Shown: positions 8,333-27,286, numbered from the stretch's first letter. The stretch is 27,286 nt of DNA from Actinomycetota bacterium (GCA_019243975.1 JAFATL010000570.1:1-27286), one strand, 5' to 3'. A program made the numbers and translations. The notes: generated from the sequence alone by a model not told the origin.

Positions 8333-8345
8333 GAGCCGAGGCCCG

Positions 8346-8351: not shown

Positions 8352-8381
8352 CAGGCGAAATCATCGAGTGTCGGGGCGGGG

Positions 8382-9572: not shown

Positions 9573-9574
9573 GG

Positions 9575-11552: not shown

Positions 11553-11562
11553 GGTCGAGACG

Positions 11563-12720
11563 TTGTCCGGAATTTCCCGACGAGACGTTCTGAAGCTCGG
11601 TGCCGTCGGCGCTGCAAGTCTGCTGTCGCTCGACCTCCTCAGCGCCTGTAGCGGGAAGAGCGGCAAGCAGACGGCGCTCGACCCCAACTCGCTGAAGCGA
11701 TTCCAGTCGGGCGGATCCAAGGGCAGCCCCACGGGTCTGCCGTCGAGGGTCGCCTGGGCTTCCACCGCCGACTCCGAGTTCTTTCTCGCCCTCGGACGCG
11801 GGATGCAGGACGCGGCCACGCGTCGGGGCCTCGAGTTCGTCACCGCCACGTCCGGGAACGACCCCGGCAAGCACGTCGACCAGATGAACGGGTTTCTCCA
11901 ACGAGGCGTCGGAGCCCTGGCCATGCAGCCCCTCAATCCGGACGCCGACAGCCTGGTGTTGCAGCGGGCGATCGACAAGGGCGTCTGCACGCAGGGCATC
12001 ATCACCGCGCCCAGCACCATGCAGGTCGTTGCCAACCAGTATCAGATCGGCTTCGACCAGGGGAAGGCCGCCGCCGACTACGTCACGGCCCACCTGGGTG
12101 GCAACGCCCAAGCGCTCTACTTCAACCTCGACACCGCATCGCCGCAGCTCAAGATCCGCCACCGCGGCGTGCTCGACGGGCTCAAGACGGGTGGTGGGGG
12201 CATCCAGGTCGTGGGCGACCTGACCGTCGCCGACATCAGCACGGCCTCGGGCTTCAACACGATGATGAGCGCGCTGCAGACACACGGCGACATCAAGGTC
12301 GTGCTGGGCGGCGACACCATCGTCGTGGGTGCTTTCAAGGCGCTGCAGCAGAGCGGGAAGCTCCGCGACGACATGTTCCTGTCGGGCGTCGACGGCGACA
12401 AGGAGGCGCTCGACCTGGTCAAGGCGGGCGGCGCGTACAAGCTGAGCATCGCCTTCGCCTGGTCGCTCATGGGTTACGGACTCGGAGAGTTCGGCGCCGA
12501 CTGGATCGACGGGAAGGAAGTGCCGCGCGTCATCGTCGCCAAGGGGGTCAAGCTCGACTCGGACGCGGCGGTGACCCGGTTCACGGCCGCCAGCGCCGAT
12601 CCCTCCAGCGTGTTCGCCGATCGAAAGCGCTACGAGGAGTACCTGCCCCTCTACGGCACCGTGAGCCACGCCACCCGGCACACCTACTGGACCTCGCCGG
12701 TCGACCCGCCCGCCACCTAG
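11563..12720 (+). CDS. Tat-exported lipoprotein, RbsB-like (type I) sugar-binding protein
   Basis: SRRDVLK twin-arginine motif and LSAC lipobox. QMNGFLQRGVGALAMQP, LSGVDGDKEAL. Probable TTG start at 11563, 7 nt after TAGGGT. Confidence 0.82.
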   Translation: MSGISRRDVLKLGAVGAASLLSLDLLSACSGKSGKQTALDPNSLKRFQSGGSKGSPTGLPSRVAWASTADSEFFLALGRGMQDAATRRGLEFVTATSGNDPGKHVDQMNGFLQRGVGALAMQPLNPDADSLVLQRAIDKGVCTQGIITAPSTMQVVANQYQIGFDQGKAAADYVTAHLGGNAQALYFNLDTASPQLKIRHRGVLDGLKTGGGGIQVVGDLTVADISTASGFNTMMSALQTHGDIKVVLGGDTIVVGAFKALQQSGKLRDDMFLSGVDGDKEALDLVKAGGAYKLSIAFAWSLMGYGLGEFGADWIDGKEVPRVIVAKGVKLDSDAAVTRFTAASADPSSVFADRKRYEEYLPLYGTVSHATRHTYWTSPVDPPAT

Positions 12721-12756
12721 TCGGGCGACACCGAGCACGCGGGGTAGGACCCGCGC

Positions 12757-13443
12757 ATGAAGTACGCCACCAAGACGTATGGGCCGCGTCGACAGGCCAG
12801 CCTCAACGCCTGCCGCAAGAAGTTCCTCTATTTCTTCCCCGATGGCTTCCGCGACCAGAACTACCTGGCCTGGGAGAGGGACTACAAGTGGGAGGCCCAT
12901 CGGCGCTGGACCGCCGAACTCGGCCCCGACCAGCTGCGTGCGCTGCTCGATCGAGGTGACTTCGCCGCCGCCGCCAAGGCCGCGGTGCGCATCGAGTCCC
13001 GCACCAACCTCCTCTTCTCCTTCGAGAAGATGGCGTTGCGCGACGCGGTTGCATCCGCCGAGGGGGCGCGGTTGTTCGCCGTCGGCCTCTACGAGTGGCT
13101 GTACGGCTCCGGCTCCGAGGCATCCAGGTTCGACACGTGGTGCGCGACAGTGGCATCCCTCCCCCGGCGTCAGACGCGGGTGCTCACCTGGCCCGCCGCG
13201 ACGGTCTTCGGGTTCATCGCCCGCCCGAAGGTGCACTTCTTCGTCAAGCCGATGGTGACGAAGGCGGCCACGGCTGCCTGCGACCTCGAGTTCCGCTATC
13301 GGTCGAAGCCGGATTCGGAGACCTACGCCGATGTCCTGGCCATGGCACGTGCCGTCCGGGCCGAACTGGCGGACATGAGCCCTCGCGACATGATCGACAT
13401 TCAGTCATTCCTCTGGGTCCAGGGCTCCGACGAATACGAGTGA
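12757..13443 (+). CDS. Hypothetical protein (228 aa)
   Basis: Protein-like composition (WERDYKW, NLLFSFEKMALRD, PRDMIDIQSFLW). Fills the gap between two genes. No family I can name with confidence. Confidence 0.8.
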   Translation: MKYATKTYGPRRQASLNACRKKFLYFFPDGFRDQNYLAWERDYKWEAHRRWTAELGPDQLRALLDRGDFAAAAKAAVRIESRTNLLFSFEKMALRDAVASAEGARLFAVGLYEWLYGSGSEASRFDTWCATVASLPRRQTRVLTWPAATVFGFIARPKVHFFVKPMVTKAATAACDLEFRYRSKPDSETYADVLAMARAVRAELADMSPRDMIDIQSFLWVQGSDEYE

Positions 13444-13448
13444 CGTGC

Positions 13449-13868
13449 TTAGCGCTGGCCTGACGGCACCACCGCCGGCTGCGCCAACGCGGCGATGGTG
13501 ACGCCCTGCAGGACGGTGCCGATGGCTTGGCCGACCGACTGCCATACCTCATCGAGTAGCGCCGCGCCGCCGAGGCTGCGCGGCGCGATCGGTGGGTCCC
13601 GCGCCTCGAGGGGGCCGTCTATGGCCGTGACCACGTCTGCGAGCGTGATCGAGGTCGCGGGGACGGCAAGGCGCCAACCGCCGCCGGGGGAGCCTCGCTG
13701 CGACCGAAGCAGGCCGCTGCGGCGGAGGTCGTTGAGAATGCGGCCCAGGAAGGCCTTCGGCAGTGATTGGGCTGCGGCGATCTGATCGCACGTGCGGCCT
13801 TCACCGTTGGCGCCCGCAAGCTCGACCATGGCTCGGATGGCGTACTCACTCTTGGCGGAGATCAACAT
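13449..13868 (-). CDS. Rrf2-family transcriptional regulator without Fe-S cysteine ligands
   Basis: MLISAKSEYAIRAMVEL..RSQRGSPGGGWRLA..ITLADVVTAIDGPL. Only one Cys, located in the HTH region. Confidence 0.9.
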   Translation of the reverse strand: MLISAKSEYAIRAMVELAGANGEGRTCDQIAAAQSLPKAFLGRILNDLRRSGLLRSQRGSPGGGWRLAVPATSITLADVVTAIDGPLEARDPPIAPRSLGGAALLDEVWQSVGQAIGTVLQGVTIAALAQPAVVPSGQR

Positions 13869-13878
13869 CGACGGCCCA

Positions 13879-14796
13879 TCACACGAGGTTCGGCACCAGC
13901 CGCGCCGCCACCTCGGTGGCGCCCCACAGACAGGCGACCACGACCGGCACGCTGGCCAGCAACGTAGGACGACTCCCCCACCGCCCGTACGCCCACGCGG
14001 CCGCTGCAAGCGTCACCACAAGGGCGGCCAGCCAGAGCGCGAGGGGCACGGCCGCGCGCGGATCGCCGCGCATCGCCGCTTCGACCGAAGGCAAGCGCCG
14101 TACTGGCGCCGCGCCCGTTCGTGGTTGGGCGGGTCCCGCCAGCAGCGCGTCGACGAACACGGTGTGGCGTTCCCATCCGCCGGTGAGGTTGTCGCTTCCC
14201 TCCGAGGTGACGAGCGTGAGGCGAGCCCCGCCGACAGGGAGCGGCGTCGGAAGATCGTCGCCGTCGCGGCGGACCCGTTCCACCCGGTACCGGAACGTGC
14301 CCTGGCCGGTGACCGCGTCGATGATGGCGCCCCTGTGCAGGTGTGCCACCGACGCGAAGGGCGCGCCGAAGGCGACGCTTCGGCCCATCAGGACCGACAC
14401 CCCCGGCTGCCCCGGCAACGCCGTGTCGCGGCGATGTCCGGGGCCGGCCGTGAGGACACCCGACGACGTGCCCTCCACCACGACCTCGTCGCCGATGCCA
14501 ATGCTCGGTACGCGCAAGAACGCAACCGGCGCGCCGACTCGAATGTGGCCGCCGATGGGCGACGTCTGGCGCGCCAGTTGCTCACGCAGCGTCGAGTGCA
14601 GCTCGTGCTGGCTCCGCCCTTCCTGGATCCGACCAAGCAAGCGGCCGTAGGCGAAGCCCCACAACGCCAGGCCGCTCACCGTCGCCAGCAGACAGGCGGC
14701 CACCGCGGCCGGGCGAGGCAGCGCCACGTTGCGGCGCTGCAGCCAGACCGCGTCGGTAGAGGAGCCAGCCGCGCTCGCGACGGGGATCGACGTCAC
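13879..14796 (-). CDS. Sortase-fold membrane protein with substituted catalytic residues (pseudo-sortase)
   Basis: LRVPSIGIGDEVVVEGTS..GPGHRRDTALPGQPGVSVLMGRS..FGAPF..GTFRYRV..LTLVTS. One N-terminal and two C-terminal hydrophobic helices. GTGA overlap with the upstream gene. Confidence 0.85.
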   Translation of the reverse strand: MTSIPVASAAGSSTDAVWLQRRNVALPRPAAVAACLLATVSGLALWGFAYGRLLGRIQEGRSQHELHSTLREQLARQTSPIGGHIRVGAPVAFLRVPSIGIGDEVVVEGTSSGVLTAGPGHRRDTALPGQPGVSVLMGRSVAFGAPFASVAHLHRGAIIDAVTGQGTFRYRVERVRRDGDDLPTPLPVGGARLTLVTSEGSDNLTGGWERHTVFVDALLAGPAQPRTGAAPVRRLPSVEAAMRGDPRAAVPLALWLAALVVTLAAAAWAYGRWGSRPTLLASVPVVVACLWGATEVAARLVPNLV

Positions 14797-17537
14797 CGCG
14801 CCGCCTGCAGCCGGCCCAGGACGTACACCACCAGTGACGCGATCCCGCTGCCGACTCCGAGCAGCAGCAGCGCGGGCAAGACGAACCCCGCCACGTGGGA
14901 GAGGACGCCGAGCGTCTTGCCGATGACGGCGCCGATCACTCCGGGGTGTTGCCCGGGAGCCGCCGGCGGCGGCAACTCGATGGCGCTGGTGAGCGGAGCC
15001 GTGCCCAACTGGTGGATCGCGGCCAGCGGCGACGCGGGCAAACCGGTGGACACGGCATCGTCGGCTCCGGACGTTCCGGCTCCCGCAGAAGACCCATCCG
15101 ATCCGGCTCCGGCCAGCGCGGTCAGCACCGGGACATCCCCGCTCTGCGTGTCGACCGCGTCGGCCGCCGCGAGGGTGTACTTCGACAAGGCGCCCAGGTC
15201 GTTGCCGGCGGTCATCGGAAGATAACCGTCGGGCAAGGTGCCCACCACGGAACCAGGCGTTTGCCCGTCGCCCACAACGAACCGCAGGAGTTGCGCGTAG
15301 GCGTGTGCGTCCTCAGCCGGTAGGCCCGTCGTCGGTACCTGCGCGTAGACGACCATCGTTCCCGGATAGGCGGCCGCTCCCCCAGGAGCGGTACGCAACG
15401 CGTCGTAGGGGATCGGCCACGTCTGGTTCACCGGGTCGTTGGTGAGCAACGCGGCAGCCGCGTGCAGTGAGTCGTTCGTCGGGGCCACGAACGAGCGGCC
15501 GTCCGCCGACGTGAACGCCGTGGGCGCCGACGACGCGACCTGGGTCTGCAGCGACGCCACATCGAGCCCGTAGCGACGGGCGTCGGCCAGGGCGGTCACG
15601 CCCAGCATGAAGCGGAAGCCCGGCGTCTGCCTACCCACGGCCACCAGCTTCTCGCCGTCGCTCGTTCCCTCGGCCACCTGCTGACAGACCGTCTGTGAGT
15701 TGGCCAGGGCGAACTCGACGTCGAGGGCGATCGGCGCCAGGTGAGGCAGGGGCGCAGCCACGAGGGGCAGGAATGGAACGGGGTTGTGGAAGAGGCAGTC
15801 GTTCGTGTCGGACGCGTAGAGCTTGGGCGGTTGGAAGGAGTCGAGCAGGGGCCACGAGTCCTTCGGGAGGGCGATGCCGCGGTAGTTGGGGTTGACGACC
15901 ATGCCCCAGGGGTCGGCCGACCCATCCAGCCACGCCCGGGCTTCGGGGTCGGCGTTGATGTACGCGGTGAGCGCGTTCATGACGTCGGAGTCACTGGAGA
16001 GCGCCAGCAGGGTCGACGCGCTCTGCGACGCCGGTACCCCGTGAGCGATACCGGGATTGAGCGCCTGGAACTCGGGGTCCTGCGATATGTCGAGCGGGTT
16101 GTGACTGAGGGCGGCGTACTCCTGCTTGATGCCGTTGATGGCCGGATACGACTGGGTCAGCAGCTTGGCCAACAGACGTGGCGTGAGCTTGAGCGATGCC
16201 ACCCGATGCCCGGTGGCGTCGTCGACCGAGAAGGCGATGGCGAAGCCGGTGACCCCGACCGGGGCGCTCACCACTGGCTTGGAGAAGCCTCCGTCGGGAA
16301 CGTCGCTGGACAGCGCCGCTTCGATGCCCCCCGACTCGAGCAGGTTGCGCGCCTCGGGCTCGCCTGTCTGCACGTGCTTGACCGTGAACAGCTTCGGGTC
16401 GAGACAGAAGTGCGGAAGCCATTGGGTGGCGGCCTGCGTCATCAGCTCCGAGCCGTACAAGTCGACACCTGCCTTGGCACCGACGACGTCGCACGCGTTC
16501 GACGCCGGCGCGAATTGCAACGGCACGGTGATCCGGTTCCGCCAGTTCGAGCTCGACCACCACAGGGCTCCGCTCACGGCGAGGTCTTCACGCCCGGCCG
16601 GCACCACGACCTGCCCGGGCTTGAACTGGCCCGTGGCCTGGCACAGGTTGGCGGCGGTGGTCGCAGGGTCGCCCGGCGCCGGGCGATCTGCCGGCGGCAG
16701 GTCTGCGGCCGCGACGTCGCAGCTGATGCCCATCACCGGCACGATGACGAGTGAGCACGCCACCTGTTGGGAGCAACCGAGCGACGCATTGTTCTCCGCA
16801 GTCCACACGTCGAACTTGGCGCTCCCCGTACCGTCCGCATTGGTTACGCCATAGGTCGTGTTGCTCGGAAGCGAGAGACCGCCGACGTTGGCCGACTCCG
16901 GTGCCATCCCCGCACACCCGCCCGATCCGCCCGGGTACGTCTTGCCGGCCGGCGTGCGGAACGGCACCCAGTGCTCGACGGGCGCAGGCGTGAAGCACGC
17001 CTGCGGCCGGGTGTCGGGCGCGCCCACCAGTGCGGTGCGTTGCCCGGCCGGCGCGTAGCGGTCGACGCGGAAAGGCGGGAAGGCAGTGTTGAACGAGTCC
17101 TGATAGCGCTCCCGAGCGGCGGCCGTCCAGCACGTCGTCGGGTCGAGCCGCTGGTTGGACGGTGCATCGGCGCTGTCGGTGCCCCAGCACTCGAGGAGCA
17201 CGACCGGATACTCCTCTTCACTGGCTGCGGCGGAGTTCTGATCAGCCACCAAGCCGCCCGTGGGATGAGCACCGGACCACGACACGTCGATCTGCTGGAA
17301 GTTGCGCAGGTCCTTGGTCTGACTGACAGCCACCGAAACGTTGCGCGTGTCGACGGTCTGATCACCGCCGTTGACGAGGTGGATCCGGGTCGCGGTCACG
17401 TGACCCGTGAACGCGGAGCCGCTGTCGTCGGCGTTGGACGGGTAGCCCGACCAGGCGACGGCCGACAACGCCAGGCCCAACCCGACGAGCACGGGAACGA
17501 TGCGCTGGGCTCGGCCGCGGGGCAGCACGTGGCTCAT
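14793..17537 (-). CDS. 914-aa exported Cys-rich protein with a degenerate PstS-like binding-protein region and a C-terminal membrane anchor
   Basis: Signal peptide (LVGLGLALSAVAWS..SNA). DLYGSELMTQAATQW and AAYPGTMVVYA resemble PstS-fold segments. 12 Cys. C-terminal TM FVLPALLLLGVGSGIASLVVYVL. Confidence 0.75.
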   Translation of the reverse strand: MSHVLPRGRAQRIVPVLVGLGLALSAVAWSGYPSNADDSGSAFTGHVTATRIHLVNGGDQTVDTRNVSVAVSQTKDLRNFQQIDVSWSGAHPTGGLVADQNSAAASEEEYPVVLLECWGTDSADAPSNQRLDPTTCWTAAARERYQDSFNTAFPPFRVDRYAPAGQRTALVGAPDTRPQACFTPAPVEHWVPFRTPAGKTYPGGSGGCAGMAPESANVGGLSLPSNTTYGVTNADGTGSAKFDVWTAENNASLGCSQQVACSLVIVPVMGISCDVAAADLPPADRPAPGDPATTAANLCQATGQFKPGQVVVPAGREDLAVSGALWWSSSNWRNRITVPLQFAPASNACDVVGAKAGVDLYGSELMTQAATQWLPHFCLDPKLFTVKHVQTGEPEARNLLESGGIEAALSSDVPDGGFSKPVVSAPVGVTGFAIAFSVDDATGHRVASLKLTPRLLAKLLTQSYPAINGIKQEYAALSHNPLDISQDPEFQALNPGIAHGVPASQSASTLLALSSDSDVMNALTAYINADPEARAWLDGSADPWGMVVNPNYRGIALPKDSWPLLDSFQPPKLYASDTNDCLFHNPVPFLPLVAAPLPHLAPIALDVEFALANSQTVCQQVAEGTSDGEKLVAVGRQTPGFRFMLGVTALADARRYGLDVASLQTQVASSAPTAFTSADGRSFVAPTNDSLHAAAALLTNDPVNQTWPIPYDALRTAPGGAAAYPGTMVVYAQVPTTGLPAEDAHAYAQLLRFVVGDGQTPGSVVGTLPDGYLPMTAGNDLGALSKYTLAAADAVDTQSGDVPVLTALAGAGSDGSSAGAGTSGADDAVSTGLPASPLAAIHQLGTAPLTSAIELPPPAAPGQHPGVIGAVIGKTLGVLSHVAGFVLPALLLLGVGSGIASLVVYVLGRLQAAR

Positions 17538-19174
17538 GCCTCCTCCCGCCGGCGTCGCAACAGCCGGGGCAGGACGGTCGGGGTGAGCACCACCGCCAGC
17601 AGCAGCAGGATCGACAGCGCGCCGAAGAGGTGCGTGGTGGCGCCGGCCAGAACGGGAACGATCCCGGCCGGTCGGTCGGCCGAGCCGGTGCGGCTGCCCA
17701 CGCCGGTGGTCGGCGCCACGGTGCCATCCGCCGCGGTCGGCAACGCCACCTCGTTCAGGGCGGACGTGCCCGTCGAGCCCACGCCGTTCGCGCCGGTGCC
17801 CGCGGCAGTGGCGCGAGCCGCCCCGCCTCCGCCGGTCGGGTTCGTACTGCTCTGACCGGCCGCGATGGCCGCGGTGAGCGCGTCACCCCGGCCGGCGGCC
17901 GCGTCGGCGCAGGGACCGGCACCGGAGGCGTCGCACGCCGGGGGCTGCGGCGCAACTTCGGCCAGGTAGTTCCGGTCGGGCTGACCGGCCACGAACGTCG
18001 GGTTGTGACACGTGGAGACGTCTCGCGACGTGAGGTCGACGTTGCCATCGGCGTCGTGCAACTTGCCGATCTGCTCGAAGCCGGCCTGCACCAGGTTGAT
18101 GGGAAGCGGCGAGTAGCCGATCGGCCCCATTTCCTTCTGGCCGTCGCAGATCGAGTAGTAGAGGAAGTCGGCCATGGTTTGGCGCTTGGCCGTCGTCATC
18201 TTCTGGTCGTCGGCCGCGGTCGGCACCACGAAGTACGAGTACGACGACAACGGGTAGGTGCGCGGGTCGCTGTACTTGTAGACCTGCGTCAGGTCCTGCA
18301 ACAGGTAGTCGGGCGAGGACTTGTCTTCGTTGATGATCGCTTGGGTCAGCGCCACCGCCACGTTGAATTGCGAGGGCAGCGTGAAGTAGCCCGCCGCGTT
18401 GCCGACCTTCGCGACCGGGTAGTTCTTGCCCAGCGCGTAGGAGTACTCGTCGTAACCGATAGCGCCGTTGGCCGCCGACGACGCAATGAAGTTCATCACC
18501 CCGTCGGAACCGCTCTGGGCGATGGCATTGCCCTTGCGCGGGTAGTACTCGGTGAGACCAGCGTGCCCCGCAAACGGGCGCCAGATGTCCGGGTACTGCT
18601 TGTCGAGGTAGTCGGTGAAGTGGGCGGAGGATCCCGAGCCCTCGGAGTGCACGACCGGGATGATCGGCAACGACGGGAGCGCACGGCCGTTGTTGTCGGC
18701 CGTGATGGCCGGGTCGCTCCAGTCGGTGACCTGGTTCGTGAAGATGAGCGCCAGCGTGCGCCCCGACAGGCGGAGGTTGCGCACCAACTGCCCGCGCACC
18801 CGTACCTGATAGGGGAACGACGTTCCGCCCGACACGATCGGCAGGTATGCGTAGTCGCGACCTTGGGCGGTATCGGCGTCGCCGGTGAGCGGGTCGGTGC
18901 CGCGGTAGCCGATCTCAGTGACCGCGAAGTCGCTGGTGCGGTACCCGAAGTCCTTCCTGCCCTGGGCGCTGCCGCTGGCGGTGAAGACGACCTGCAACCC
19001 GTTCGCCTGCACGTCGGCGATCCACTGGTTCATGGCGTTGGCGCTCCAGCTCGACCCCGACCCCTGGATGAGCGCATGGCTGGATGCGGCATGGGCAGAT
19101 CCGGCGGCCGCCGCACCGGTGCCGACGCACAGCCCCATGGCAACCGCCACCCGAACCAGCCTGCCGAGCTTCAC
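17534..19174 (-). CDS. pstS: PstS-like phosphate-binding-fold protein with a C-terminal linker, TM anchor and basic tail
   Basis: IQGSGSSW, SGSAQGRKDF, VVHSEGSGSS, GAIGYDEYSYA, RTYPLSSYSY. SPI-type signal (AHA/A). Tail LSILLLLAVVL..RRRR. Confidence 0.82.
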   Translation of the reverse strand: MKLGRLVRVAVAMGLCVGTGAAAAGSAHAASSHALIQGSGSSWSANAMNQWIADVQANGLQVVFTASGSAQGRKDFGYRTSDFAVTEIGYRGTDPLTGDADTAQGRDYAYLPIVSGGTSFPYQVRVRGQLVRNLRLSGRTLALIFTNQVTDWSDPAITADNNGRALPSLPIIPVVHSEGSGSSAHFTDYLDKQYPDIWRPFAGHAGLTEYYPRKGNAIAQSGSDGVMNFIASSAANGAIGYDEYSYALGKNYPVAKVGNAAGYFTLPSQFNVAVALTQAIINEDKSSPDYLLQDLTQVYKYSDPRTYPLSSYSYFVVPTAADDQKMTTAKRQTMADFLYYSICDGQKEMGPIGYSPLPINLVQAGFEQIGKLHDADGNVDLTSRDVSTCHNPTFVAGQPDRNYLAEVAPQPPACDASGAGPCADAAAGRGDALTAAIAAGQSSTNPTGGGGAARATAAGTGANGVGSTGTSALNEVALPTAADGTVAPTTGVGSRTGSADRPAGIVPVLAGATTHLFGALSILLLLAVVLTPTVLPRLLRRRREEA

Positions 19175-20223
19175 CGAGCCACCTGCCGGTTGCGGGCGGC
19201 GAAACGGGCCGCCGCAAAGAGGGCGAGCACGAGGACGACGAGGAGAGCGGCGGCGCCGTAGCCGCGGGCGATGTACTGCGGCTCACCGCTGCGGACCGAG
19301 GCGAAGATGAACAGCGGCAACGAGTTCATCGGGTTGTGGAAGGGGTTCTTGTTGAAGAACGTCGAGGCACCCGACACGATCAGCAGGGGCGCCGTCTCGC
19401 CGGCGATACGCGCCACCCCGAGGATGAGCGAAGTCGCCAGTCCGGGGCGAGCCGTCGGCAGCACGACACCCCGCACCGTCCGCCAGTGCGACGCGCCCAG
19501 GGCCAGGCCTGCCTCGCGCAACCCGTCGGGCACCAGCTTGAGGACCACCTCCGCCGAGCGGGCCACGACCGGCGTCATCGTCACCGCCAGGGCCAACGAG
19601 ACGGCAAACCCGTCGCGCTCCCAGTGAAAGCCGATGATCAGCACGGTGTAGACGAACAGACCTGCCAGCACGTCGGGCAGCGCCGTCATGGCTTCGATCA
19701 CCGTGCGCACAACGTTCGTCAGGCGGCCGCCCACCTCGGTCATGTACACGGCTGTGGCGATGCCAAGCGGCAGGGCGATGAGGACGGCGATGCCGATCTC
19801 GATCCCTGATCCGATGACGGCGTGCAGCACCCCGCCCTGACTCAGCGGCGACGTCGGCCGCACGCCCGACATGTCGTCGACGTAGAAGTTGAGGTGGTGC
19901 AGGGCGGGCCAGCCCCGCACAAAGACGAACCCGATCGTCACCACCAGAGCCGCCCCCACCAGGGCGGCCCCGCCGGTCACGACCGCAGCGACGAGGCGGT
20001 CGGCCACCACGGTGCCCGGGTTGGAGAAGGCGCTCAACGCCACGTAGACGCCGAGGAACGCCAGGTACCACGCCACCGCAAAACCAATGGCGCCGCTGGT
20101 CGGCAGCACCCGCAGGTACAGCAGCCACGTCAGTGCGAGGGAACCGACGCCGGCGCCGACCACCGAGGCCACATCGTCGAGGTGGCGGGTGGAGATGCGC
20201 CGGGGGACGTCGACGTCGATCAC
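19171..20223 (-). CDS. pstA: PstA-like ABC permease with an N-terminal hydrophobic extension
   Basis: GGVLHAVIGS, ALPLGIATAVYMTE, EAA loop VPDGLREAGLALGASHWRTV, GVARIAGETAPLL. Confidence 0.88.
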   Translation of the reverse strand: MIDVDVPRRISTRHLDDVASVVGAGVGSLALTWLLYLRVLPTSGAIGFAVAWYLAFLGVYVALSAFSNPGTVVADRLVAAVVTGGAALVGAALVVTIGFVFVRGWPALHHLNFYVDDMSGVRPTSPLSQGGVLHAVIGSGIEIGIAVLIALPLGIATAVYMTEVGGRLTNVVRTVIEAMTALPDVLAGLFVYTVLIIGFHWERDGFAVSLALAVTMTPVVARSAEVVLKLVPDGLREAGLALGASHWRTVRGVVLPTARPGLATSLILGVARIAGETAPLLIVSGASTFFNKNPFHNPMNSLPLFIFASVRSGEPQYIARGYGAAALLVVLVLALFAAARFAARNRQVAR

Positions 20224-20224
20224 G

Positions 20225-21226
20225 TCAGAGCTCCGCCCCTGCGCCGCTGCGGCTGCGGTTCACGAACACGGCCGCGACCGTGTTGACCCCCAGGGTCATG
20301 AGGAAGAGAACGAAGCCGGCAGCCAACAGCGCCGACAGCTGCGAGGTGGTCGCCTCGCCAAAGCGCCCGGCGATGAGAGCTGAGGTCGTCATCGTGCCGA
20401 CCGTCAGCACGTGGAACTTGATCTCGAACGCCGGCGAGATGATGAGCAGGACGGCGATCGTCTCGCCCAGGGCCCGGCCCAGAGCGAGCATCGTGCCGCC
20501 GATGATCCCGCGCCGCCCGAACGGCAACACGACGGTGCGGATCACCCCCAACCGGGTGGCGCCGAGAGCGGATGCAGCCTCTCGCTCGCCGAGCGGCGTC
20601 TCGGCGAACACGCCGCGCATGATTGCGCACGCCAGCGGGATCACCATCAGCGACACCGCAATGCCGGCGATGAACGCCGAAGCCGTGTACTTCGAGGGCG
20701 CCCACGCCGCCGCGTTGGGATCGGTGTCGACGCGGAAGATCGGCACCCAGGAGAAGTACTGGCTCAGCCAGCGGGCGATGTAAATCGCGTGGGGCTGCAG
20801 GAAGGCGAAACCCAGCAGCCCGTAGATGATGCTGGGCACGGCCGCCATCAAATCGACGAGGGCGACCAGGCCGGCCCGGATGCGCGCCGGCGCGTACTCA
20901 CTTATGTACAGCGCGGTAGCGAGTGCCAGGGGGAACCCGATCGCGAGGGCGATGACGGCCACCTCGACCGTGCCGACGAGCACGGCGGCGAGGCCGATGA
21001 TGTCGCGCTCGGGCAGCCACCGGCTCTCGGTGAAGAAATGGAGGCCGTAGCGGTGCAGCGTCGGGAGACCCTGGTAGCCGAGGAACAGGCCAATGGCGAG
21101 GATGAGGGCGAGCACGGCCATGCCCACGCCTCGGGCGCCGTGATGGAAGACGCGATCGGCCTTCGTCAGGCCCGGGTCGACGACGCGAGGCTCGTCGAAC
21201 GCAGGCGAGGGCAACACATGGGCCAT
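20225..21226 (-). CDS. pstC: PstC-like ABC permease
   Basis: FFTESRWLP, LYISEYAP, DLMAAVPSIIYGL, EREAASALGATR, LGRALGETIAV. Confidence 0.9.
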   Translation of the reverse strand: MAHVLPSPAFDEPRVVDPGLTKADRVFHHGARGVGMAVLALILAIGLFLGYQGLPTLHRYGLHFFTESRWLPERDIIGLAAVLVGTVEVAVIALAIGFPLALATALYISEYAPARIRAGLVALVDLMAAVPSIIYGLLGFAFLQPHAIYIARWLSQYFSWVPIFRVDTDPNAAAWAPSKYTASAFIAGIAVSLMVIPLACAIMRGVFAETPLGEREAASALGATRLGVIRTVVLPFGRRGIIGGTMLALGRALGETIAVLLIISPAFEIKFHVLTVGTMTTSALIAGRFGEATTSQLSALLAAGFVLFLMTLGVNTVAAVFVNRSRSGAGAEL

Positions 21227-21245
21227 GACGCGTGGGTCTTCGCGC

Positions 21246-22079
21246 TCAGCCGAATCGGCCGTGGACGTAGTCGGACGTCCGCTGGTCTTGAGGCTGCTCG
21301 AACACCTGCCGCGTCGAGCCCATCTCGACGACCACCCCGGGCTCGCCCTCGGCGGCGAGGAAGAACGCGCACTGCTGCGACACGCGCACGGCCTGCTGCA
21401 TGTTGTGGGTAACGATCACCACGGTCATGTCGTGGGCCAGCTCGCCGATCGTCCGCTCGATGTGGCGGGTCGAGGTGGGGTCGAGCGCGGAGCACGGCTC
21501 GTCCATGAGCAGCACGTCCGGATCGACGGCCAACGAACGGGCGATGCACAAGCGCTGCTGCTGACCGCCCGAGAGCGCCCCGCCCGGCCGGTCGAGCCGG
21601 TTCTTCACCTCGTCCCACAGGCCCGCACGGCGCAGGCTTCGCTCGGCGATCTCGGCCCGCTCCCCGCGACTGACGCGCTGGCCCGTGAGCTTGAGCCCGG
21701 CGGTGACGTTGTCGGCGATCGACATGGCGGGGAACGGGTTCGGCTTCTGGAACACCATGCCGATGCGCCGACGCGTCTCGGTGACGCGCTGACTTCCGTC
21801 GTAGACGTCATGCCCGTCGAGCAGGACCTCACCGGCCATCTTCGCCATCGGCGTCGACTCGTGCATGCGATTGAGGATGCGGAGGAACGTCGACTTGCCG
21901 CACCCCGATGGCCCGATGAGCGCAGTGACGCTGGCGTTCGGCATCGACATCGACACCCGCTCGAGCACTTTGTGGGTGCCGAACCACGCCGAGACGTTGC
22001 GCGTCTCGAGATGGGCCGCCGTGCCTGCGGGCGCGACGGCGGGCGGCGCCGGTTCGGCGAGAACGGAGGTCGCGGTCAT
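21246..22079 (-). CDS. pstB: PstB-like ABC ATPase
   Basis: Walker A GPSGCGKST, LNRMHE, MVFQKPNPFP, LSGGQQQRLCIAR, LLMDEPCSALDP, IVTHNMQQA. ATG 22079 overlaps the upstream TGA. Confidence 0.95.
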   Translation of the reverse strand: MTATSVLAEPAPPAVAPAGTAAHLETRNVSAWFGTHKVLERVSMSMPNASVTALIGPSGCGKSTFLRILNRMHESTPMAKMAGEVLLDGHDVYDGSQRVTETRRRIGMVFQKPNPFPAMSIADNVTAGLKLTGQRVSRGERAEIAERSLRRAGLWDEVKNRLDRPGGALSGGQQQRLCIARSLAVDPDVLLMDEPCSALDPTSTRHIERTIGELAHDMTVVIVTHNMQQAVRVSQQCAFFLAAEGEPGVVVEMGSTRQVFEQPQDQRTSDYVHGRFG

Positions 22080-23329
22080 ACCCGGTGCCGCCAGGCCGGG
22101 ACCCGCCGCCGGGCCCAGCCGACGACCGCCGCGCCCAACAGGAACACGCCCAGGCCTGCGCCCGCGGTGCCGAGGATCTGGCGACCCGTTCGGGGCAGGG
22201 CGCCCGACCCCGACGAGGATGACGACCCCGACGTGCCGCCCGTTGACGATGCCGCCACGGTGAACGGGTACGACGCGACGCGACTGGCACCGGTGAGGGT
22301 GATGGTGTGGGCACCGGCGTCGAGGCTCGTCGGCAGGGTGATCGACGCCGTCACCTTCCCCGCCGCGTCGGCCGTGACCGAACCCAGGCTTACGGTCGCC
22401 GAGTGGGCCGCCACGGCGACCGACTCGTTGGGCGTGAATCCGGATGCCGTGACCGTGATCTTTTGGCCCGGCGTCAGGGTGGTGTTCGCCGCCAGCGGGC
22501 TGCCGGATGCGTCGGTGGCGGTCGCGGTGGTGGTCGTGGTGGTGGTGGTGGTCGACCCGCCCACCGCCGTTGTGGTCGTGGTGGACCCTCCCGCCACCGT
22601 CGTCGTGGTAGAGCCGCCGGCCACGGTGGTGCTCGTGGAACCGCCGGACGCAGTGGTGGTGGTCGAACCGCCCGCCACGGTCGTCGGCGTCGTGGTCGGT
22701 GGCGTACTGCCGGGCGCCGGATACACCTGCGTCCACGTGGATCCCGTGATCTGGATGACGGTTTCGAAGTACTGCGAGCCCGGCGCCTGGCCCGGTCCCG
22801 ACGTCTTCAGGCGCAGCTGGTACAGCCCCTGATAGGGGTCACCGCTGGGCGCCGTATTGGGGAAGTCGCCTTGCAACTGCGCCAACGTCTCGTCCGACGA
22901 AGTCAAGCTCACCAGCGGCAGCGGCGAGCTCTTCAGGGCCGCGGGCGCGTTCGAGTTCGGATAGGTCGTCGAGCCCGACATCTGCTCGCTCGACCACGCC
23001 CCGCTGGGCTGCCCGCTCTTGGGCAGCGCGCCGAAGAGCGTGGCCTTGTTGTCGCCCGAACGGCCCGCCCCGCTGGCCTGCGCGAAGGCGGCGAAGGGAG
23101 CGTCACCCACGTTGCCGGTTGTGACGGCTGCGCCACTGGCGTTGTAGAAGGTGAGGAAGCCGCTCGAGTTGGGATCGGGCTCGAACGGCGGCGCCGATGC
23201 CGCGCCCGCGGGGCCGATGTCCGACAGCGTGGCCACCGCGCCGGCGACCAGCAGGCCCACCGCCAGCGCCAGGCGCACGGCCGTGCCGGTCCGGCGCCAG
23301 CGGGTCTTCGTCGGAATGGAGTTCGTCAT
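22076..23329 (-). CDS. LPXTG-anchored surface protein: unnamed N-domain, Thr-rich stalk, Ig-like domain, LPRTG-TM-basic tail
   Basis: Signal peptide. Ig-like PGQKITVTASGFTPNESV..ADAAG..SITLP..GAHTITLTG. GALPRTG followed by a hydrophobic stretch and RRR. ATG 23329 has SD AGGA. Confidence 0.87.
   Translation of the reverse strand: MTNSIPTKTRWRRTGTAVRLALAVGLLVAGAVATLSDIGPAGAASAPPFEPDPNSSGFLTFYNASGAAVTTGNVGDAPFAAFAQASGAGRSGDNKATLFGALPKSGQPSGAWSSEQMSGSTTYPNSNAPAALKSSPLPLVSLTSSDETLAQLQGDFPNTAPSGDPYQGLYQLRLKTSGPGQAPGSQYFETVIQITGSTWTQVYPAPGSTPPTTTPTTVAGGSTTTTASGGSTSTTVAGGSTTTTVAGGSTTTTTAVGGSTTTTTTTTTATATDASGSPLAANTTLTPGQKITVTASGFTPNESVAVAAHSATVSLGSVTADAAGKVTASITLPTSLDAGAHTITLTGASRVASYPFTVAASSTGGTSGSSSSSGSGALPRTGRQILGTAGAGLGVFLLGAAVVGWARRRVPAWRHRV
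22513..22704 (-). repeat. Five imperfect GGSTTT(T) coding repeats (Thr-rich stalk)
   Basis: TVAGGSTTTTASGGSTSTTVAGGSTTTTVAGGSTTTTTAVGGSTTTTTTTTT. Confidence 0.85.
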
Positions 23330-23336
23330 GCCAGTC

Positions 23337-24164
23337 CTATCGATGTCGTGAATGGAGAAAAGGGGTGCGCCGTCGCCTGCGGGCGATGAACGCGGCGCCG
23401 AGCACCGCCGGCACCGCGAGAAGTGCCCACGGGACGCCATGTCGCGTACGAGACGGGGCGGGACGCGCCGTGTCCGCCTTGGTCGTGGGCGCCGCCAGCT
23501 GGCCGGTCGTCAGCCCGGGGAGTGTCGTGCTCGTGGCCTGCTGCTCCTGGATCGCCTGGGCGACGGACTTCGAGGGGTCGGCCGACGGCAGTAGCTCGGC
23601 GATCGAGGTGGCCTGGCCGACGTCGCAGGCCACATCGCCGCCGCGCACGACCTCCCACCGCGCTCCCGACACGCGGATGTCTGTCGCTGCGTACGTCTGC
23701 GTGTAGGGCGGCTGGTCGGGGGCACCCAGGTAGAGGCGGAGCTGCAACAGCCCGTTCCACCGGGGCGGGTAGCTGTCGACGAACTCGCGCAGCGGCGCGT
23801 CCGCCGCGACGAGCTTGCCGATGGGGTGCGCCGGATTCGTGTACCGCGTCGAGGCGCCGAGGGCGTCGCCGCTCCACTCCCCCGGCGCGACTCCCGGCCG
23901 GGGCTGGAACGCGAACAGCGTCGCCGTGCGGCCGTCGCCCGCGTAGTCCGCCGGCGCGGCCGTCGAGCTCACGGCCGTACCCACGAAAGGCCGGTCGTCG
24001 AGTGAGCCCGCGTGCACCGCGTGCCCACTCGCATCGCACAGGCCGAGGTACCCGTTCACCTTGGCGTCGGAGTACGGCACCGACGCCGCGTCCGCCCGTG
24101 CGCCGAGCGACACCACGGCGACGACCGACGTGGCCAGCGCGGCGCCGGCCCGAAACCATCTCAT
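23337..24164 (-). CDS. Exported protein with the same unnamed domain, a linker and a C-terminal TM plus RRRRR tail
   Basis: Signal peptide (ARA/DAA). Domain alignable by eye to that of 22076-23329. VPWALLAVPAVLGAAFIA-RRRRR. Confidence 0.82.
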   Translation of the reverse strand: MRWFRAGAALATSVVAVVSLGARADAASVPYSDAKVNGYLGLCDASGHAVHAGSLDDRPFVGTAVSSTAAPADYAGDGRTATLFAFQPRPGVAPGEWSGDALGASTRYTNPAHPIGKLVAADAPLREFVDSYPPRWNGLLQLRLYLGAPDQPPYTQTYAATDIRVSGARWEVVRGGDVACDVGQATSIAELLPSADPSKSVAQAIQEQQATSTTLPGLTTGQLAAPTTKADTARPAPSRTRHGVPWALLAVPAVLGAAFIARRRRRTPFLHSRHR

Positions 24165-24173
24165 CGGCCTGGG

Positions 24174-25337
24174 TCACCCCGCCGAGACGTTGCCGAGGTC
24201 GTTGTAACCGGGGATGCCGCCCGCCGCGGCGACGAGCGCCTGGCCCGCCGGCTTCTTGAAGAAGGGCGTGCCGTTGGTATCGGAGAACAACGTCTGCACC
24301 CAGTTCTTCGTGCTGCCCGGCTGCCAGGGGGACGACGACGTGGCGTCGCTCTGGCGGAAGGTGACGTAGAGGCCGTTGGTGTCGTTGTAGAACGCGGCCC
24401 CGTCAGGAGCGCTCCCCGTGAGGGCCTTCACGCCGGGCTGCAGGGCCGACCCGCCGGGGAAGGCGGTGGCCGGGTTGTGGAAGTACCCCGAGTTCCAGAG
24501 GTTCAGGCGACCGATGGAGAAGGGAACGATCGCATCCGCCGGGCTGGTCGCACCCGTCACTGCGCCGGGGTCGTTCTGCTCGACGGTGATCACGTTGGAC
24601 CCGAGCGTGATGGCCGTGCCGCCGTTGGCGGCCTTCAGGTCGGCCAGGAACGTCTTGTTGATCGACGATGAGCTGGGCGGGATCAGCGGCAGGATGGCGT
24701 TTGTCGACCCACTGCTGTTCCCGGGCAACTCGTTCCAGTGCAGGTAGGTGCCTTTGTAGATGCCGATTAGCTCGGCAGTGGACAGGCCCGCCGGCGCGTT
24801 CGTGGTCGACGCCGCGACCACCTGGAGGGGGTCGGTCCCGATCTGCACCACGTGCAGGAAGCCCCACCCGTTGTTCTGGGCGGTCGTCTGGTTGGCAGCC
24901 GTGGGCAGGCTGGCGGCCCGGGTGAAGTTGATCTTCTGGATCGACCCGGTGTCGGCGAGGATGGCGCTGTAGCCGCCGCCAGTGCTGGTGATGCGCTGTA
25001 CGGGAAACGTGCCGGCCCGCAGCACGACGGTGGGGTTGAGGGCCTTGGGCGCCGACTCGGTACTGAACTGCGCGTATGCGGCGCGGCCGTTCGAATCAGC
25101 CGTGGCGTCGATGCTCACCAGCTTGTTGACGTTGTTCGCCGCGTTGTAGCCAAGGTCGCCGTTGGTGTCGCCATCGGCGCCGAAGTCGACGTTGTACTGC
25201 GGCGTCTCACCACCGACGCCGACGACGTCGGTGGCCGAGGGCGCGTAGTCCGCGTGGGCGCTGACGGCCGTGCTGACGAACAGCGTGAGCAGCGCAGCCG
25301 CGCCGAGCCACAGCCTCCCGAGATTCCTTGCCTGCAC
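24174..25337 (-). CDS. Secreted, unanchored, divergent PstS-like (PBP-fold) protein; first gene of the operon
   Basis: Signal peptide (AHA/D). VVGVGGETPQ, INFTRAAS, LSTAELIGIYKG.YLHWNEL. GTG 25337 has SD GAAGGA. No lipobox or C-terminal TM. Confidence 0.78.
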   Translation of the reverse strand: MQARNLGRLWLGAAALLTLFVSTAVSAHADYAPSATDVVGVGGETPQYNVDFGADGDTNGDLGYNAANNVNKLVSIDATADSNGRAAYAQFSTESAPKALNPTVVLRAGTFPVQRITSTGGGYSAILADTGSIQKINFTRAASLPTAANQTTAQNNGWGFLHVVQIGTDPLQVVAASTTNAPAGLSTAELIGIYKGTYLHWNELPGNSSGSTNAILPLIPPSSSSINKTFLADLKAANGGTAITLGSNVITVEQNDPGAVTGATSPADAIVPFSIGRLNLWNSGYFHNPATAFPGGSALQPGVKALTGSAPDGAAFYNDTNGLYVTFRQSDATSSSPWQPGSTKNWVQTLFSDTNGTPFFKKPAGQALVAAAGGIPGYNDLGNVSAG

Positions 25338-25391: not shown

Positions 25392-25416
25392 AATTCCTAT
25401 CAGGATAGTAGGAATT
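25392..25416. promoter_or_regulatory. 25-bp inverted repeat AATTCCTA-N9-TAGGAATT, candidate Rrf2 operator overlapping a -10 box
   Basis: Perfect 8-bp arms in an AT-rich patch. Minus-strand TACTAT (25410-25405) lies inside it, with TTGCAC (25434-25429) 18 nt upstream. Confidence 0.65.
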
Positions 25417-25496: not shown

Positions 25497-25961
25497 CTAG
25501 AAGCTCATCGCTACTGGGAATTCGGCTGTCGAGATCGGCCCCACCAGCTGGACGCTGTAGGAACCGGCAAGACAGTTGAACCCGGCGATGCCGAAGGACA
25601 GGTTGCCGGCGCCATCCGACGTGAGGACAACCGGCGGCGTCACCCCATCGAACGTCACGGCACCGCAGTTGCCGCGCAGAAGCAACGAATCCACGGTGAC
25701 CGCCTCGAACGGCGCCAAACCATGGCACGCGGCAGACGTCCCGCCCGCGCCTTGCAACGTGAGCACGATTGTCTGCGGGGTCGCCGCGCAGAGCGATGGC
25801 GCCGCCGCTGGGGCTCCTCCCCCACCGCCGCCCCCGCCGCTGTGGTGGTGATGGTGATGATGGTGGCGGGCATGCGCGAGCGCGGGTGCCTCGAGCGTAA
25901 TGAGTCCGGCCACGAGAGCGATCACGATCGCCACGGCCAACTTCGCACCCGACTGCCTCAC
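25497..25961 (-). CDS. Small secreted protein with a His8-Gly tract after the signal peptide and a 4-Cys domain
   Basis: GTG 25961 has SD GAAGGAGG. APALA/HARHHHHHHHHSGGGGGGGG. Confidence 0.85.
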   Translation of the reverse strand: MRQSGAKLAVAIVIALVAGLITLEAPALAHARHHHHHHHHSGGGGGGGGAPAAAPSLCAATPQTIVLTLQGAGGTSAACHGLAPFEAVTVDSLLLRGNCGAVTFDGVTPPVVLTSDGAGNLSFGIAGFNCLAGSYSVQLVGPISTAEFPVAMSF

Positions 25962-26119: not shown

Positions 26120-27286
26120 TCAGGCGGATGCCTGTTTGATGTCGGTGGCGACGTCGGCGCCCAGGGCGTCGGCGTTGCCGGTGTCGATGTGCGCATGGCC
26201 ATCGTCGTTGTCGTCGCCGGTGTTCTTCACCGAGTTGTTGCCGGTGGCGGCTCGGGCGGACCCGAGGCCGGCGGCGTTGACGTTCTGCCCGACGTGGGCG
26301 ACCGTGCCGTTGGCGACGGCCGGAGTGGCCGCCATCTGGTCGACGGTGACGAGAGCCCGATCGCCGAGTGCGGTGGCATCGCCGGTCGACAGCCGCGTGT
26401 CGCTGTCGTTGTCACCGGTGGTCGCCAGAGCCGCACCGACGTCGGACACCCGTACCGGCTGGTCGATGAGGGTCACCGAAGTGCCCCACGCCGACGCCGA
26501 TTGGGTGACCGTCGTGGTCGCCAGGTTGCCCGTGGCGGTGGCCGTTCCTGTGGTCAACTCGGTCGCGTTGCCGTTGTGACCGGTGTTGGCCGTCGCCTTG
26601 CCGAGGTTCGTCACCGCGACGGGTTCGTCGATGATCGCCAGACCGTCGCCTGCGGCGATGGCGGACTGGCTCACGCCGGTGGTCGCCTCGTTACCGGTGG
26701 CCGTGGCCGGGCCGGTGAGGATGTCGGGTGGACCGGCGCCCGAGATCGCGCCCATGACGCGATTCGAGCGATCGGGGACCGTGGCCAGGGGGTCGACAGG
26801 CGTCGACGAGGTGTCAGCAGTCAGCGTGCTCGGCGTGTTCGTCCCCAGGGGGACAGCACTGACCGGCGCGGCGGAGCTCGAAACACTCGAACCCAGGTGC
26901 GTGCCCGAGAGCGGCACCGTGGGAGTCGTGCCGCCCGAGCTGGTCGGTAGTGGCGTGAGCGTGCCACCGAGCACCGTCTTGGCCAACGGAACGAGCTTGA
27001 GCGGCGCGCCGCCCGTCGACCCGTCGTCGGTGACACCGTTGTTGCCGGTGCGCGCGATGGCGACACCCCGGTTGGTGACATTCGCCGACTGGTCGATGAT
27101 CGATGCGCCGTGCTTGGTCGCGTTGGTCGTGGCCGACTGCATGACGTTCGTCGTCGCTATGTTTCCCTTGGCGACAGCCGGGCCCGTCTCGATCGACGCA
27201 TGGCCGTTCGAGGAGTTCGAGTCCGCCGACGTGTTCTGCGACGTGTTCCCGGATGCCTTGTTGCTGCCCGTGGTGGCAGCGGCAGT
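26120..27286 (-). CDS. Thr/Ala/Gly/Asn-rich repeat protein (beta-solenoid-like), 5' truncated by the window edge
   Basis: The frame stays open to 27286 (TAAATTGSNKASGNT...GHASIETG...). Four full ~50-55-aa repeats and one partial, consensus xTGxAxAxGNxAxTxVxQ...IxQxxxVxNxGxAxAxTGxN. Confidence 0.85.
   Translation of the reverse strand, partial: TAAATTGSNKASGNTSQNTSADSNSSNGHASIETGPAVAKGNIATTNVMQSATTNATKHGASIIDQSANVTNRGVAIARTGNNGVTDDGSTGGAPLKLVPLAKTVLGGTLTPLPTSSGGTTPTVPLSGTHLGSSVSSSAAPVSAVPLGTNTPSTLTADTSSTPVDPLATVPDRSNRVMGAISGAGPPDILTGPATATGNEATTGVSQSAIAAGDGLAIIDEPVAVTNLGKATANTGHNGNATELTTGTATATGNLATTTVTQSASAWGTSVTLIDQPVRVSDVGAALATTGDNDSDTRLSTGDATALGDRALVTVDQMAATPAVANGTVAHVGQNVNAAGLGSARAATGNNSVKNTGDDNDDGHAHIDTGNADALGADVATDIKQASA

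Follow-up and report, generated by a model that had tools for sequence, protein, structure and literature searches.

A conserved actinobacterial gene cluster combining Pst transporter paralogues with tethered PstS-fold proteins and a predicted pseudo-sortase

The subject of this study is a ten-gene cluster in a 27,286-nucleotide stretch of DNA from an Actinomycetota bacterium (GCA_019243975.1, JAFATL010000570.1:1-27286), hereafter the window, which is high-GC actinobacterial DNA (about 69% GC). The ten genes are consecutive and co-oriented on the minus strand at positions 13449-25337 (coordinates rechecked). In order of transcription they encode a secreted protein with a periplasmic binding protein (PBP) fold (g1), two surface proteins that share a domain we call domain X (g2 and g3), paralogues of PstB, PstC and PstA, a tethered PstS-like receptor (g7), a 914-residue PstS-fold protein (g8), a sortase-like protein with substituted catalytic residues, or pseudo-sortase (g9), and an Rrf2-family regulator (g10). 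Four junctions are 4-bp start/stop overlaps of the ATGA/GTGA type, namely g3/pstB (ATGA), pstA/g7, g7/g8 and g8/g9, and the remaining gaps measure 9 nt (g1-g2), 7 nt (g2-g3), 19 nt (pstB-pstC), 1 nt (pstC-pstA) and 10 nt (g9-g10). Recomputation thus reproduced exactly the layout given in a first-pass annotation of this DNA (ten co-oriented genes, four 4-bp overlaps and no other gap above 19 nt). A consensus scan of the operon found no internal promoter-like sites, and a scan for terminator-like sites inside it gave no excess over chance; together with the tight junctions, this fits a single transcription unit read from the 159-nt gap upstream of g1. All the extracellular products of the operon carry ordinary Sec signal peptides.

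The window PstB (ATPase; 21246-22079), PstC (permease; 20225-21226) and PstA (permease; 19171-20223), all encoded on the minus strand, score at or above the NCBIfam equivalog cut-offs (TIGR00972, 344.6 bits vs a cut-off of 343.2; TIGR02138, 223.2 vs 196.45; TIGR00974, 204.5 vs 193.45, respectively). The cluster PstBs of five other genomes fall just under the TIGR00972 cut-off, at 331-342 bits, whereas the housekeeping PstBs of the same genomes reach 365-389 bits. Alignment to chains of cryo-electron microscopy structures shows that PstC has the segment LGRALGET, identical to that of E. coli and containing R237 and E241 (chain 9k3x_B), and that PstA conserves ARIAGETAPLL, which contains E. coli R220 and E224 (chain 9k3s_A). 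From the older mutagenesis literature, we take these two charged pairs to be needed for phosphate translocation. In a PstB tree, 68 cluster PstBs and six housekeeping PstBs lie on opposite sides of one long branch (Shimodaira-Hasegawa-like approximate likelihood ratio test, SH-aLRT, 100); this tree and the sortase tree described below are quick-search trees with an assumed root. Cluster and housekeeping PstC are 43-47% identical in five Streptomyces, both copies being present in each. PstB, PstC and PstA are intact, cluster-specific paralogues that have kept the Arg/Glu pairs of the transport pathway.

The assembly also contains a canonical pst operon. Contig C579 carries pstS-C-A-B-phoU, with a PstS of 325 bits (TIGR00975), a PstB of 369.7 bits and PhoU directly after PstB; this housekeeping PstS has a lipobox and the textbook phosphate-ligand residues. 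A separate housekeeping Pst was found in every genome checked, that is, in the genome of the window, in five complete carrier genomes and in the five Streptomyces, and each of the complete carriers has one housekeeping PstB and one or two cluster PstBs at the pseudo-sortase locus. The first-pass annotation had set the cluster apart from canonical pstSCAB as a candidate undescribed envelope system, and both the separate canonical operon and the well-supported PstB clade agree with this.

The product of g7 (17534-19174, minus strand; 546 residues) consists of a cleavable-type signal peptide without a lipobox, a PstS domain that takes up about the first 365 residues, a low-complexity tether (about 130 residues) and, at the C-terminus, a membrane helix that is followed by RRRR. 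It aligns to solved PstS proteins with an E-value of 1e-25. At the positions corresponding to T10, F11, S38, D56, R135, D137, S139, G140 and T141 of E. coli PstS, g7 of the window has S, W, S, E, H, E, S, G and S, and the majority form of the family (65 members) is T, W, S, E, R, D, S, G and T. The family as a whole keeps S/T10, S38, D/E56, R/H135, D/E137, S139, G140 and T/S141, and replaces F11 by Trp in all its members. Every change at a ligand position is conservative, and the pocket is predicted to be PstS-like. A C-terminal helix followed by a basic tail is present in 65 of 65 g7 proteins. In addition, 61 of the 65 have an xPxTG pentapeptide in the tether, when about 11 would be expected from composition; in nearly all cases this motif reads D-P-E/D-T-G, and some 40 residues separate it from the helix that follows. 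The helix and basic tail, of g7 as well as of g8 (see below), have the topology of an uncleaved cell-wall sorting signal.

For g8 (14793-17537, minus strand), no Pfam or NCBIfam match was found. A structural model based on an alignment of 45 sequences (predicted local distance difference test, pLDDT, 86.4; predicted template modelling score, pTM, 0.82) shows a Cys-rich N-terminal domain (residues ~40-350), a PstS-fold domain (353-797), a disordered segment (812-881) and a membrane helix with a basic tail (881-913). The PstS-fold domain superposes on PstS-1 and PstS-3 of M. tuberculosis with Z scores of about 31 (31.5 for PstS-1); Foldseek gave template modelling (TM) scores of 0.71-0.76 to many PstS entries, and profile-profile comparison linked g8 to the g7 family with a probability of 98%. 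The ligand residues of PstS are replaced in g8, with a near-invariant Glu364 at the position of Thr10 and no GSGT loop. The altered, more acidic pocket makes it unlikely that g8 binds phosphate in the canonical manner. No structural match was listed for the Cys-rich N-terminal domain in either of two structure searches, both of which were dominated by the PstS domain. The tether of g8 is about 70 residues long, and Thr875, within this otherwise unconserved disordered linker, is present in 43 of 45 homologues, in the context [LVM]-[GPA]-x-T-x about 10 residues before the helix; a C-terminal helix and basic tail are present in 64 of the 66 g8 proteins examined for them. The first gene of the operon, g1 (24174-25337, minus strand; 387 residues), codes for a further, divergent PBP-fold protein of the PstS family, secreted and unanchored. 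Its assignment is based on Pfam (PBP_like_2, 1.4e-07) and on its neighbours in the Atlas of structures, which are PstS/PBP_like_2 clusters with TM scores of 0.54-0.77; hhalign gave no match of g1 to the g7 profile.

In the g9 protein (13879-14796, minus strand), the sortase fold is preceded by one membrane helix and followed by two others, the last residues being LVPNLV. It matches PF04203 (44.6 bits vs 26.6; E-value 1.5e-11) and scores 53.3 bits with the class E model NF033747, under the cut-off of 160. The genome also encodes two real sortases with TLTTC, on contigs C363 and C769, and alignment to these two shows that in g9 the catalytic His is replaced by Arg, the Cys by Ser and the Arg by Thr. 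Among 77 members of the family, six of which could not be read at this site, the position of the catalytic Cys is occupied by Ala in 50, Ser in 19, Val in one and Thr in one, and never by Cys. In a tree, 29 pseudo-sortases are separated from 14 Cys-bearing sortases of six genomes by a single split with a support of 100. The pseudo-sortases form an old single clade that travels with the cluster genes, which accompanied it in every case examined. The motifs VVVEGT and GH...T.LPG are shared by g9 and real sortases. Moreover, the Cys-bearing sortase of contig C363 has two extra C-terminal helices as well, and a similar end (...ARLLPANI vs ...ARLVPNLV in g9), from which we infer that the dead sortase derives from a three-helix sortase subtype. 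A P-x-N motif is conserved at the C-terminus. A special self-docking function of the conserved LPNL end in the dead sortase had been considered, an idea weakened by the same two extra helices and the similar end of the Cys-bearing protein.

Two of the surface proteins share domain X, which is 34% identical between g2 (23337-24164, minus strand) and g3 (22076-23329, minus strand) over about 198 residues (E-value 4e-19). In g2 it lies between a signal peptide and a C-terminal membrane helix, beyond which the protein ends in RRRRR. In g3 the domain gives way to a Thr-rich stalk and then to an Ig-like region, and the protein closes with a canonical cell-wall sorting signal (LPRTG, about 20 hydrophobic residues and RRR); since real TLTTC sortases are encoded on contigs C363 and C769, g3 can be anchored to the wall in trans. 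The stalk (window positions 22500-22760) is made of near-tandem units of the VAGGSTTTT type and then nine Thr in a row, and it looks like an O-glycosylated spacer. Domain X is modelled as a beta-sandwich (pLDDT above 95 over residues 30-190 of g2), belongs to no Pfam family in g2 or g3 and resembles solved structures weakly (Z at most 5.5). Its best match among AlphaFold DB clusters is named 'DUF916 domain-containing' (32% identity). A DUF916 or WxL identity was rejected, as neither g2 and g3 nor 24 relatives gave a DUF916 or WxL Pfam match (E<=1), and so was kinship with the N-terminal domain of g8, to which BLASTP detected no similarity.

The conservation of this gene set was examined by tblastn of the ten window proteins against 80 related loci with flanks of up to 10 kb. 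In essentially every adequately flanked locus (about 60 of the 80), pstC-pstA-g7-g8 were found upstream of the pseudo-sortase gene, a syntenic recurrence that takes the arrangement far beyond chance. The 4-bp overlap of g7 and g8 was seen in 40 of 60 loci. The position of pstB varies, either before pstC or after the pseudo-sortase gene, the order of the genes being permuted and the set kept. In the pstB-first architecture, that of the window, domain-X proteins are present and g7 mostly has D56 with H135/E137; in the pstB-last architecture there is no domain X and g7 has E56 with R135/D137. The window g7 mixes the two patterns (E56 with H135/E137). Homologues of g1 were found in about 45 of the 80 loci and domain X in about 25, g2 being restricted to the pstB-first architecture; the Rrf2 gene, g10, was absent from all 80. 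Of the flanking genes that the first-pass annotation expected to be conserved with this Pst clade, the PstS-like gene, the gene of the 914-residue protein and the pseudo-sortase gene are indeed conserved, the domain-X genes in one architecture only and the Rrf2 gene not at all.

The core set extends over Acidimicrobiia and many orders of Actinomycetes, and a Cellulomonas genome with called genes has the same set. Relatives of the pseudo-sortase number in the hundreds, at 40-68% identity, and come from Acidimicrobiia, Cellulomonas, Nocardioides, Aeromicrobium, Dactylosporangium, Micromonospora, Plantactinospora, Actinokineospora, Actinophytocola, Amycolatopsis, Cryobacterium and some Streptomyces. 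Among the matches listed, 546 stretches were confirmed, an upper bound in that one of the two patterns used could match true sortases. The g8 family has 423 representatives (50% identity, E<=1e-30) among 1.84 billion proteins, and g8 homologues occur in at least 11 of 400 evenly drawn Actinomycetota genomes. That the cluster is a real, conserved and hitherto undescribed system is, in our view, very nearly certain.

The source assembly, a 3.85-Mb metagenome-assembled genome (87% complete, 5.7% contaminated) with its nearest named relatives in Acidimicrobiia and with DNA that recurs in rock, root and rhizosphere metagenomes, holds a second copy of the cluster. This copy, on contig C420 (about 4600-22600, minus strand), has a different gene order, with pstC, pstA, a PstS-like gene, the gene of a PstS-fold giant of 1127 residues, two surface-protein genes, a pseudo-sortase gene of its own, pstB and three further genes; a PhoU paralogue lies at 2390-3301, about 6 kb downstream. 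Trees and searches place PstB, g8 and the pseudo-sortase of the window closest to versions from the class Actinomycetes and one Acidimicrobiia genome, and the C420 copy with Acidimicrobiales, Ilumatobacteraceae and genomes of the same order. This mismatch could reflect horizontal transfer of the pstB-first type, or a mis-binned window contig, given the 5.7% contamination.

Considering these data together, we propose that the cluster encodes an accessory Pst-type importer, for phosphate or a similar phosphoryl compound or oxyanion, that works beside the housekeeping PstSCAB and has an envelope module of its own; we give this a probability of roughly 0.55. Judged from sequence, import of phosphate or a close analogue as such is rather probable. 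The Arg/Glu pairs of PstC and PstA and the PstS-type ligand positions of g7 are kept, which argues for an importer with an accessory module and against an assembly motor. In such a system, the g7 receptor would be held by its C-terminal helix on a tether of about 130 residues instead of a lipid anchor, and the long tethers would allow the PstS domains to range through the wall zone and come back to the permease. The g8 protein, secreted g1 and the wall- and membrane-anchored domain-X proteins might provide a layer for capture, relay or spacing, with the LPRTG protein g3 presumably joined to peptidoglycan by one of the real sortases of the genome. The dead sortase, no longer cutting, may bind the tails of g7 (D-P-x-T-G, helix and basic tail) and g8 (Thr motif, helix and basic tail), and would so keep both proteins beside PstCA. 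As a non-cutting sortase is always encoded together with proteins that have degenerate signals, the most economical inference is that the sortase fold has been kept for binding. That the dead sortase scaffolds sorting-signal-like tails is nevertheless a tentative proposal, in our view somewhat more likely to be wrong than right. The fuller picture, in which the non-catalytic sortase acts as a receptor of degenerate sorting signals and organises the tethered PstS-fold proteins into a wall-spanning relay feeding the Pst importer, is more doubtful still.

Several observations weigh against this proposal. The case for a scaffolding sortase is entirely one of motif resemblance; the motif of the g7 family stands about 40 residues from the helix, unlike the adjacent arrangement of true sorting signals, and the tether of the window g7 contains just APTTG in place of D-P-x-T-G. 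The window g7 scores 170.5 with TIGR00975, under the PstS cut-off of 205, and because of this score and of E56, H135 and E137 orthophosphate may not be its ligand. At the housekeeping pstS promoter, which served as a positive control, four of five Streptomyces carriers have a perfect tandem PHO box; within 1.5 kb upstream of the cluster pstC, none of the five had a perfect PHO box, two matches with one mismatch being all that was found, and control by phosphate starvation is therefore not evident in these carriers. PhoU was present within the cluster in none of the 80 loci, and linked to it on contig C420 only. The DNA of the window was found in no RNA sequencing run. Four soil and rhizosphere metatranscriptomes, searched at 80% likeness, gave no informative signal, the matches being short fragments in g7 and an accumulation over the generic motif of ATP-binding cassette (ABC) ATPases. 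Lastly, the overlap counts in related loci are approximate, as start codons were picked automatically.

Some of the same observations are what one would expect if the architecture were as proposed and the cargo something other than free orthophosphate, that is, another tetrahedral oxyanion or phosphoryl compound; phosphate from wall teichoic-type polymers, phosphite, arsenate or an organophosphate would be examples, with g8 and g1 binding the polymer or a counter-ion. The sub-cut-off score of g7 fits this alternative, as do the systematic changes in its family (Trp for F11 in all members, and the pairing of residues 56, 135 and 137 by architecture), the near-invariant Glu of g8 at the Thr10 position and the lack of clear PHO boxes upstream in the Streptomyces carriers. 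However, the changes in g7 are conservative and the majority form retains R135, D137, S139, G140 and T141, the Arg/Glu pairs of the phosphate pathway are retained in PstC and PstA, and the best matches, structural as well as by sequence, are all orthophosphate binders. We consider a different cargo unlikely, while regarding it as the strongest of the competing explanations.

A sensing device is a second alternative. PstSCAB-PhoU reports phosphate status to PhoR, and one could imagine that the occupancy of the tethered PstS-fold proteins and the state of the transporter report envelope or external phosphate status to regulators, in place of bulk supply. The likeness of g8 and g1 to receptors with altered pockets would suit such a function, as would the PhoU paralogue near the C420 cluster and the PASTA kinase and lytic transglycosylase that adjoin a Cellulomonas version. 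Yet neither PhoU nor a kinase or regulator is conserved with the cluster in the 80 loci, and the Rrf2 protein is unique to the lineage of the window, which makes sensing as the main role improbable.

Slightly less credible again is an ordinary back-up phosphate importer to which the surface and sortase-like genes are merely adjacent, with no functional link. Taken alone, the transporter genes do resemble a complete Pst set, and multiple Pst copies are known in Actinobacteria, for example PstS1-3 of M. tuberculosis. Against chance adjacency, this PstB clade comes with g7, g8 and the pseudo-sortase in essentially all loci that have sufficient flanks, over two classes and despite rearrangement, 4-bp overlaps tie pstA, g7, g8 and the pseudo-sortase gene together, and the pseudo-sortase clade is never seen apart from these genes in the cases examined. 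For a co-opted PstCAB core, the first-pass annotation had suggested either that it may capture phosphate or another oxyanion from minerals, polymers or other cells, or that it may energise or scaffold the assembly of a PBP-fold surface structure. The second role, in place of solute import, gains some colour from the unusually heavy extracellular complement (three PBP-fold, two beta-sandwich and one sortase-fold protein). However, PstC and PstA are type I importer permeases of the standard kind, in which the residues of the substrate pathway are conserved, the extracellular parts all have ordinary Sec signal peptides, the g7 ligand positions favour an importer and we know of no precedent for a Pst-type importer as an assembly motor. 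We rate the assembly role as improbable as the back-up importer.

The accessory importer proposed here can be compared with several known systems. With PstSCAB, as represented by that of E. coli (9k3s/9k3x), by PstS-1 and PstS-3 of M. tuberculosis and by that of Streptomyces, the cluster shares equivalog PstB, PstC and PstA, the permease motifs and the PstS fold in g7 and g8. It differs in gene order (pstB-C-A-S or pstC-A-S...B), in its separate PstB clade, in having no phoU within the cluster, in a receptor that is tail-anchored on a long tether, not periplasmic or a lipoprotein, and in being always joined to a giant PstS-fold protein with an altered pocket and to a dead sortase. With class E sortases, such as SrtE1 of S. 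coelicolor, g9 shares the sortase fold and N-terminal membrane helix, but not the catalytic His, Cys and Arg; the family lacks the Cys throughout, and g9 reaches 53 bits where the class E model requires 160. With the tripartite sorting signals, g7, g8, g2 and g3 have in common the hydrophobic helix and basic tail. As the pentapeptides of g7 and g8 are degenerate (D-P-x-T-G about 40 residues away from the helix, and G-x-T-x near it), cleavage and wall attachment of these two proteins are not expected.

Receptors of ABC importers are kept near the membrane in different ways, as lipoproteins in Gram-positive bacteria, by a Ser/Thr-rich linker and C-terminal helix in archaea, or by fusion to the permease as in OpuA and GlnPQ. 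The g7 protein would likewise stay near its permease, and its linker and C-terminal helix are like those of some archaeal receptors. To our knowledge, no bacterial PstS-type receptor is tethered in this manner, nor is any found with a pseudo-sortase or a second giant receptor-fold protein. The WxL/Csc clusters of Firmicutes consist of a membrane-anchored DUF916 protein, a small LPXTG protein and WxL proteins, and the cluster resembles them in mixing helix-anchored and LPXTG-anchored beta-sandwich proteins in one operon. However, Pfam shows no DUF916 or WxL domain in g2 and g3, and the Firmicute clusters are not known to include an ABC transporter or a sortase-fold protein.

A partial parallel is offered by Actinoplanes missouriensis, in which two proteins, AMIS_11010 and AMIS_36440, have a signal peptide, a C-terminal helix and basic residues with no recognisable pentapeptide, and are encoded beside sortase-family genes (PMC13251363). 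That study, of 2026, covered all the sortase candidates of the organism, and no phenotype was found for a quadruple class F sortase mutant (PMC13251363). The sortases concerned are of the catalytic type, class F, and Pst genes are not involved (PMC13251363).

Full-text searches of the literature found no description of the cluster or of a Cys-less sortase family, and a search for work naming pstC, pstA and sortase together returned nothing relevant. Sortases go unmentioned in the main review of phosphate transport in actinobacteria. With hundreds of relatives in the databases, this agrees with the earlier suggestion of a distinct, widespread and apparently unstudied system. What is new here is a probable Pst importer with an accessory module that includes a new family of pseudo-enzymes. 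PstSCAB uptake is among the best-studied processes of bacterial transport, and sortases are the textbook surface enzymes of Gram-positive bacteria. The two are tied together here in a conserved gene set of hundreds of species, including culturable Cellulomonas, Nocardioides, Aeromicrobium, Dactylosporangium, Actinokineospora and some Streptomyces, in which the system is directly testable. If the proposed roles hold, the system would show how nutrient capture can reach across the thick wall of monoderm bacteria, and would reveal a role for a pseudo-sortase and a new use of the PstS fold, in a giant protein with a changed pocket. A wall-spanning relay organised by the dead sortase, if true, would add a new way for thick-walled bacteria to move a scarce anion across the envelope, and the first functional pseudo-sortase. 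For annotation, the dead enzyme and the giant PstS-fold protein are at present listed in public records as 'class E sortase' or 'sortase A' and as 'hypothetical', respectively.

The last gene of the operon, g10 (13449-13868, minus strand), encodes the Rrf2-family regulator (TIGR00738, 92.1 vs 73.3). It has a single Cys and not the three-Cys iron-sulphur site of IscR/NsrR-type members, and is therefore not of the iron-sulphur cluster type; sensing by g10 would need another route. The 159-nt gap upstream of g1 contains a perfect inverted repeat, AATTCCTA-N9-TAGGAATT (25392-25416), a putative operator site that may serve the Rrf2 protein encoded in the same operon. Like the Rrf2 gene, the palindrome is specific to the lineage of the window. 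No Rfam family was detected in the window or in the upstream regions of four Streptomyces.

Additional features were seen around the cluster in other genomes. In two Streptomyces carriers (L112 and L113; about 450-1500), a low-GC tract (0.55-0.61) some 450 nt long lies upstream of the cluster pstC, and next to it, just before pstC, is a weak coding signal for a small gene; in Cellulomonas, the corresponding spot before pstC is occupied by a gene for a 131-residue protein of unknown function. Directly upstream of the cluster of Cellulomonas sp. KRMCY2 and in the same orientation (L014:265-2756) are genes for an SLT_2 lytic transglycosylase and a PASTA Ser/Thr kinase, a neighbourhood that may point to a connection with cell-wall growth in certain lineages.

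Within the window itself, the gene directly upstream of the operon, in the same orientation (25497-25961, minus strand), encodes a secreted protein of 154 residues with no Pfam match, the mature end of which opens with eight His and then at least eight Gly, so that it may bind metal at the cell surface. Further upstream, a large secreted protein with TG(N/D)xATT...VxQ...A repeats, also without a Pfam match, is encoded by a gene that runs off the window (26120-27286, minus strand). On the other side of the operon lie genes for a response-regulator receiver domain fused to a PP2C/SpoIIE phosphatase (8382-9572, plus strand) and for a sugar-type periplasmic binding protein with a twin-arginine translocation (TAT) signal (11458-12720), neither of which, as far as we could see, bears a visible relation to the cluster.

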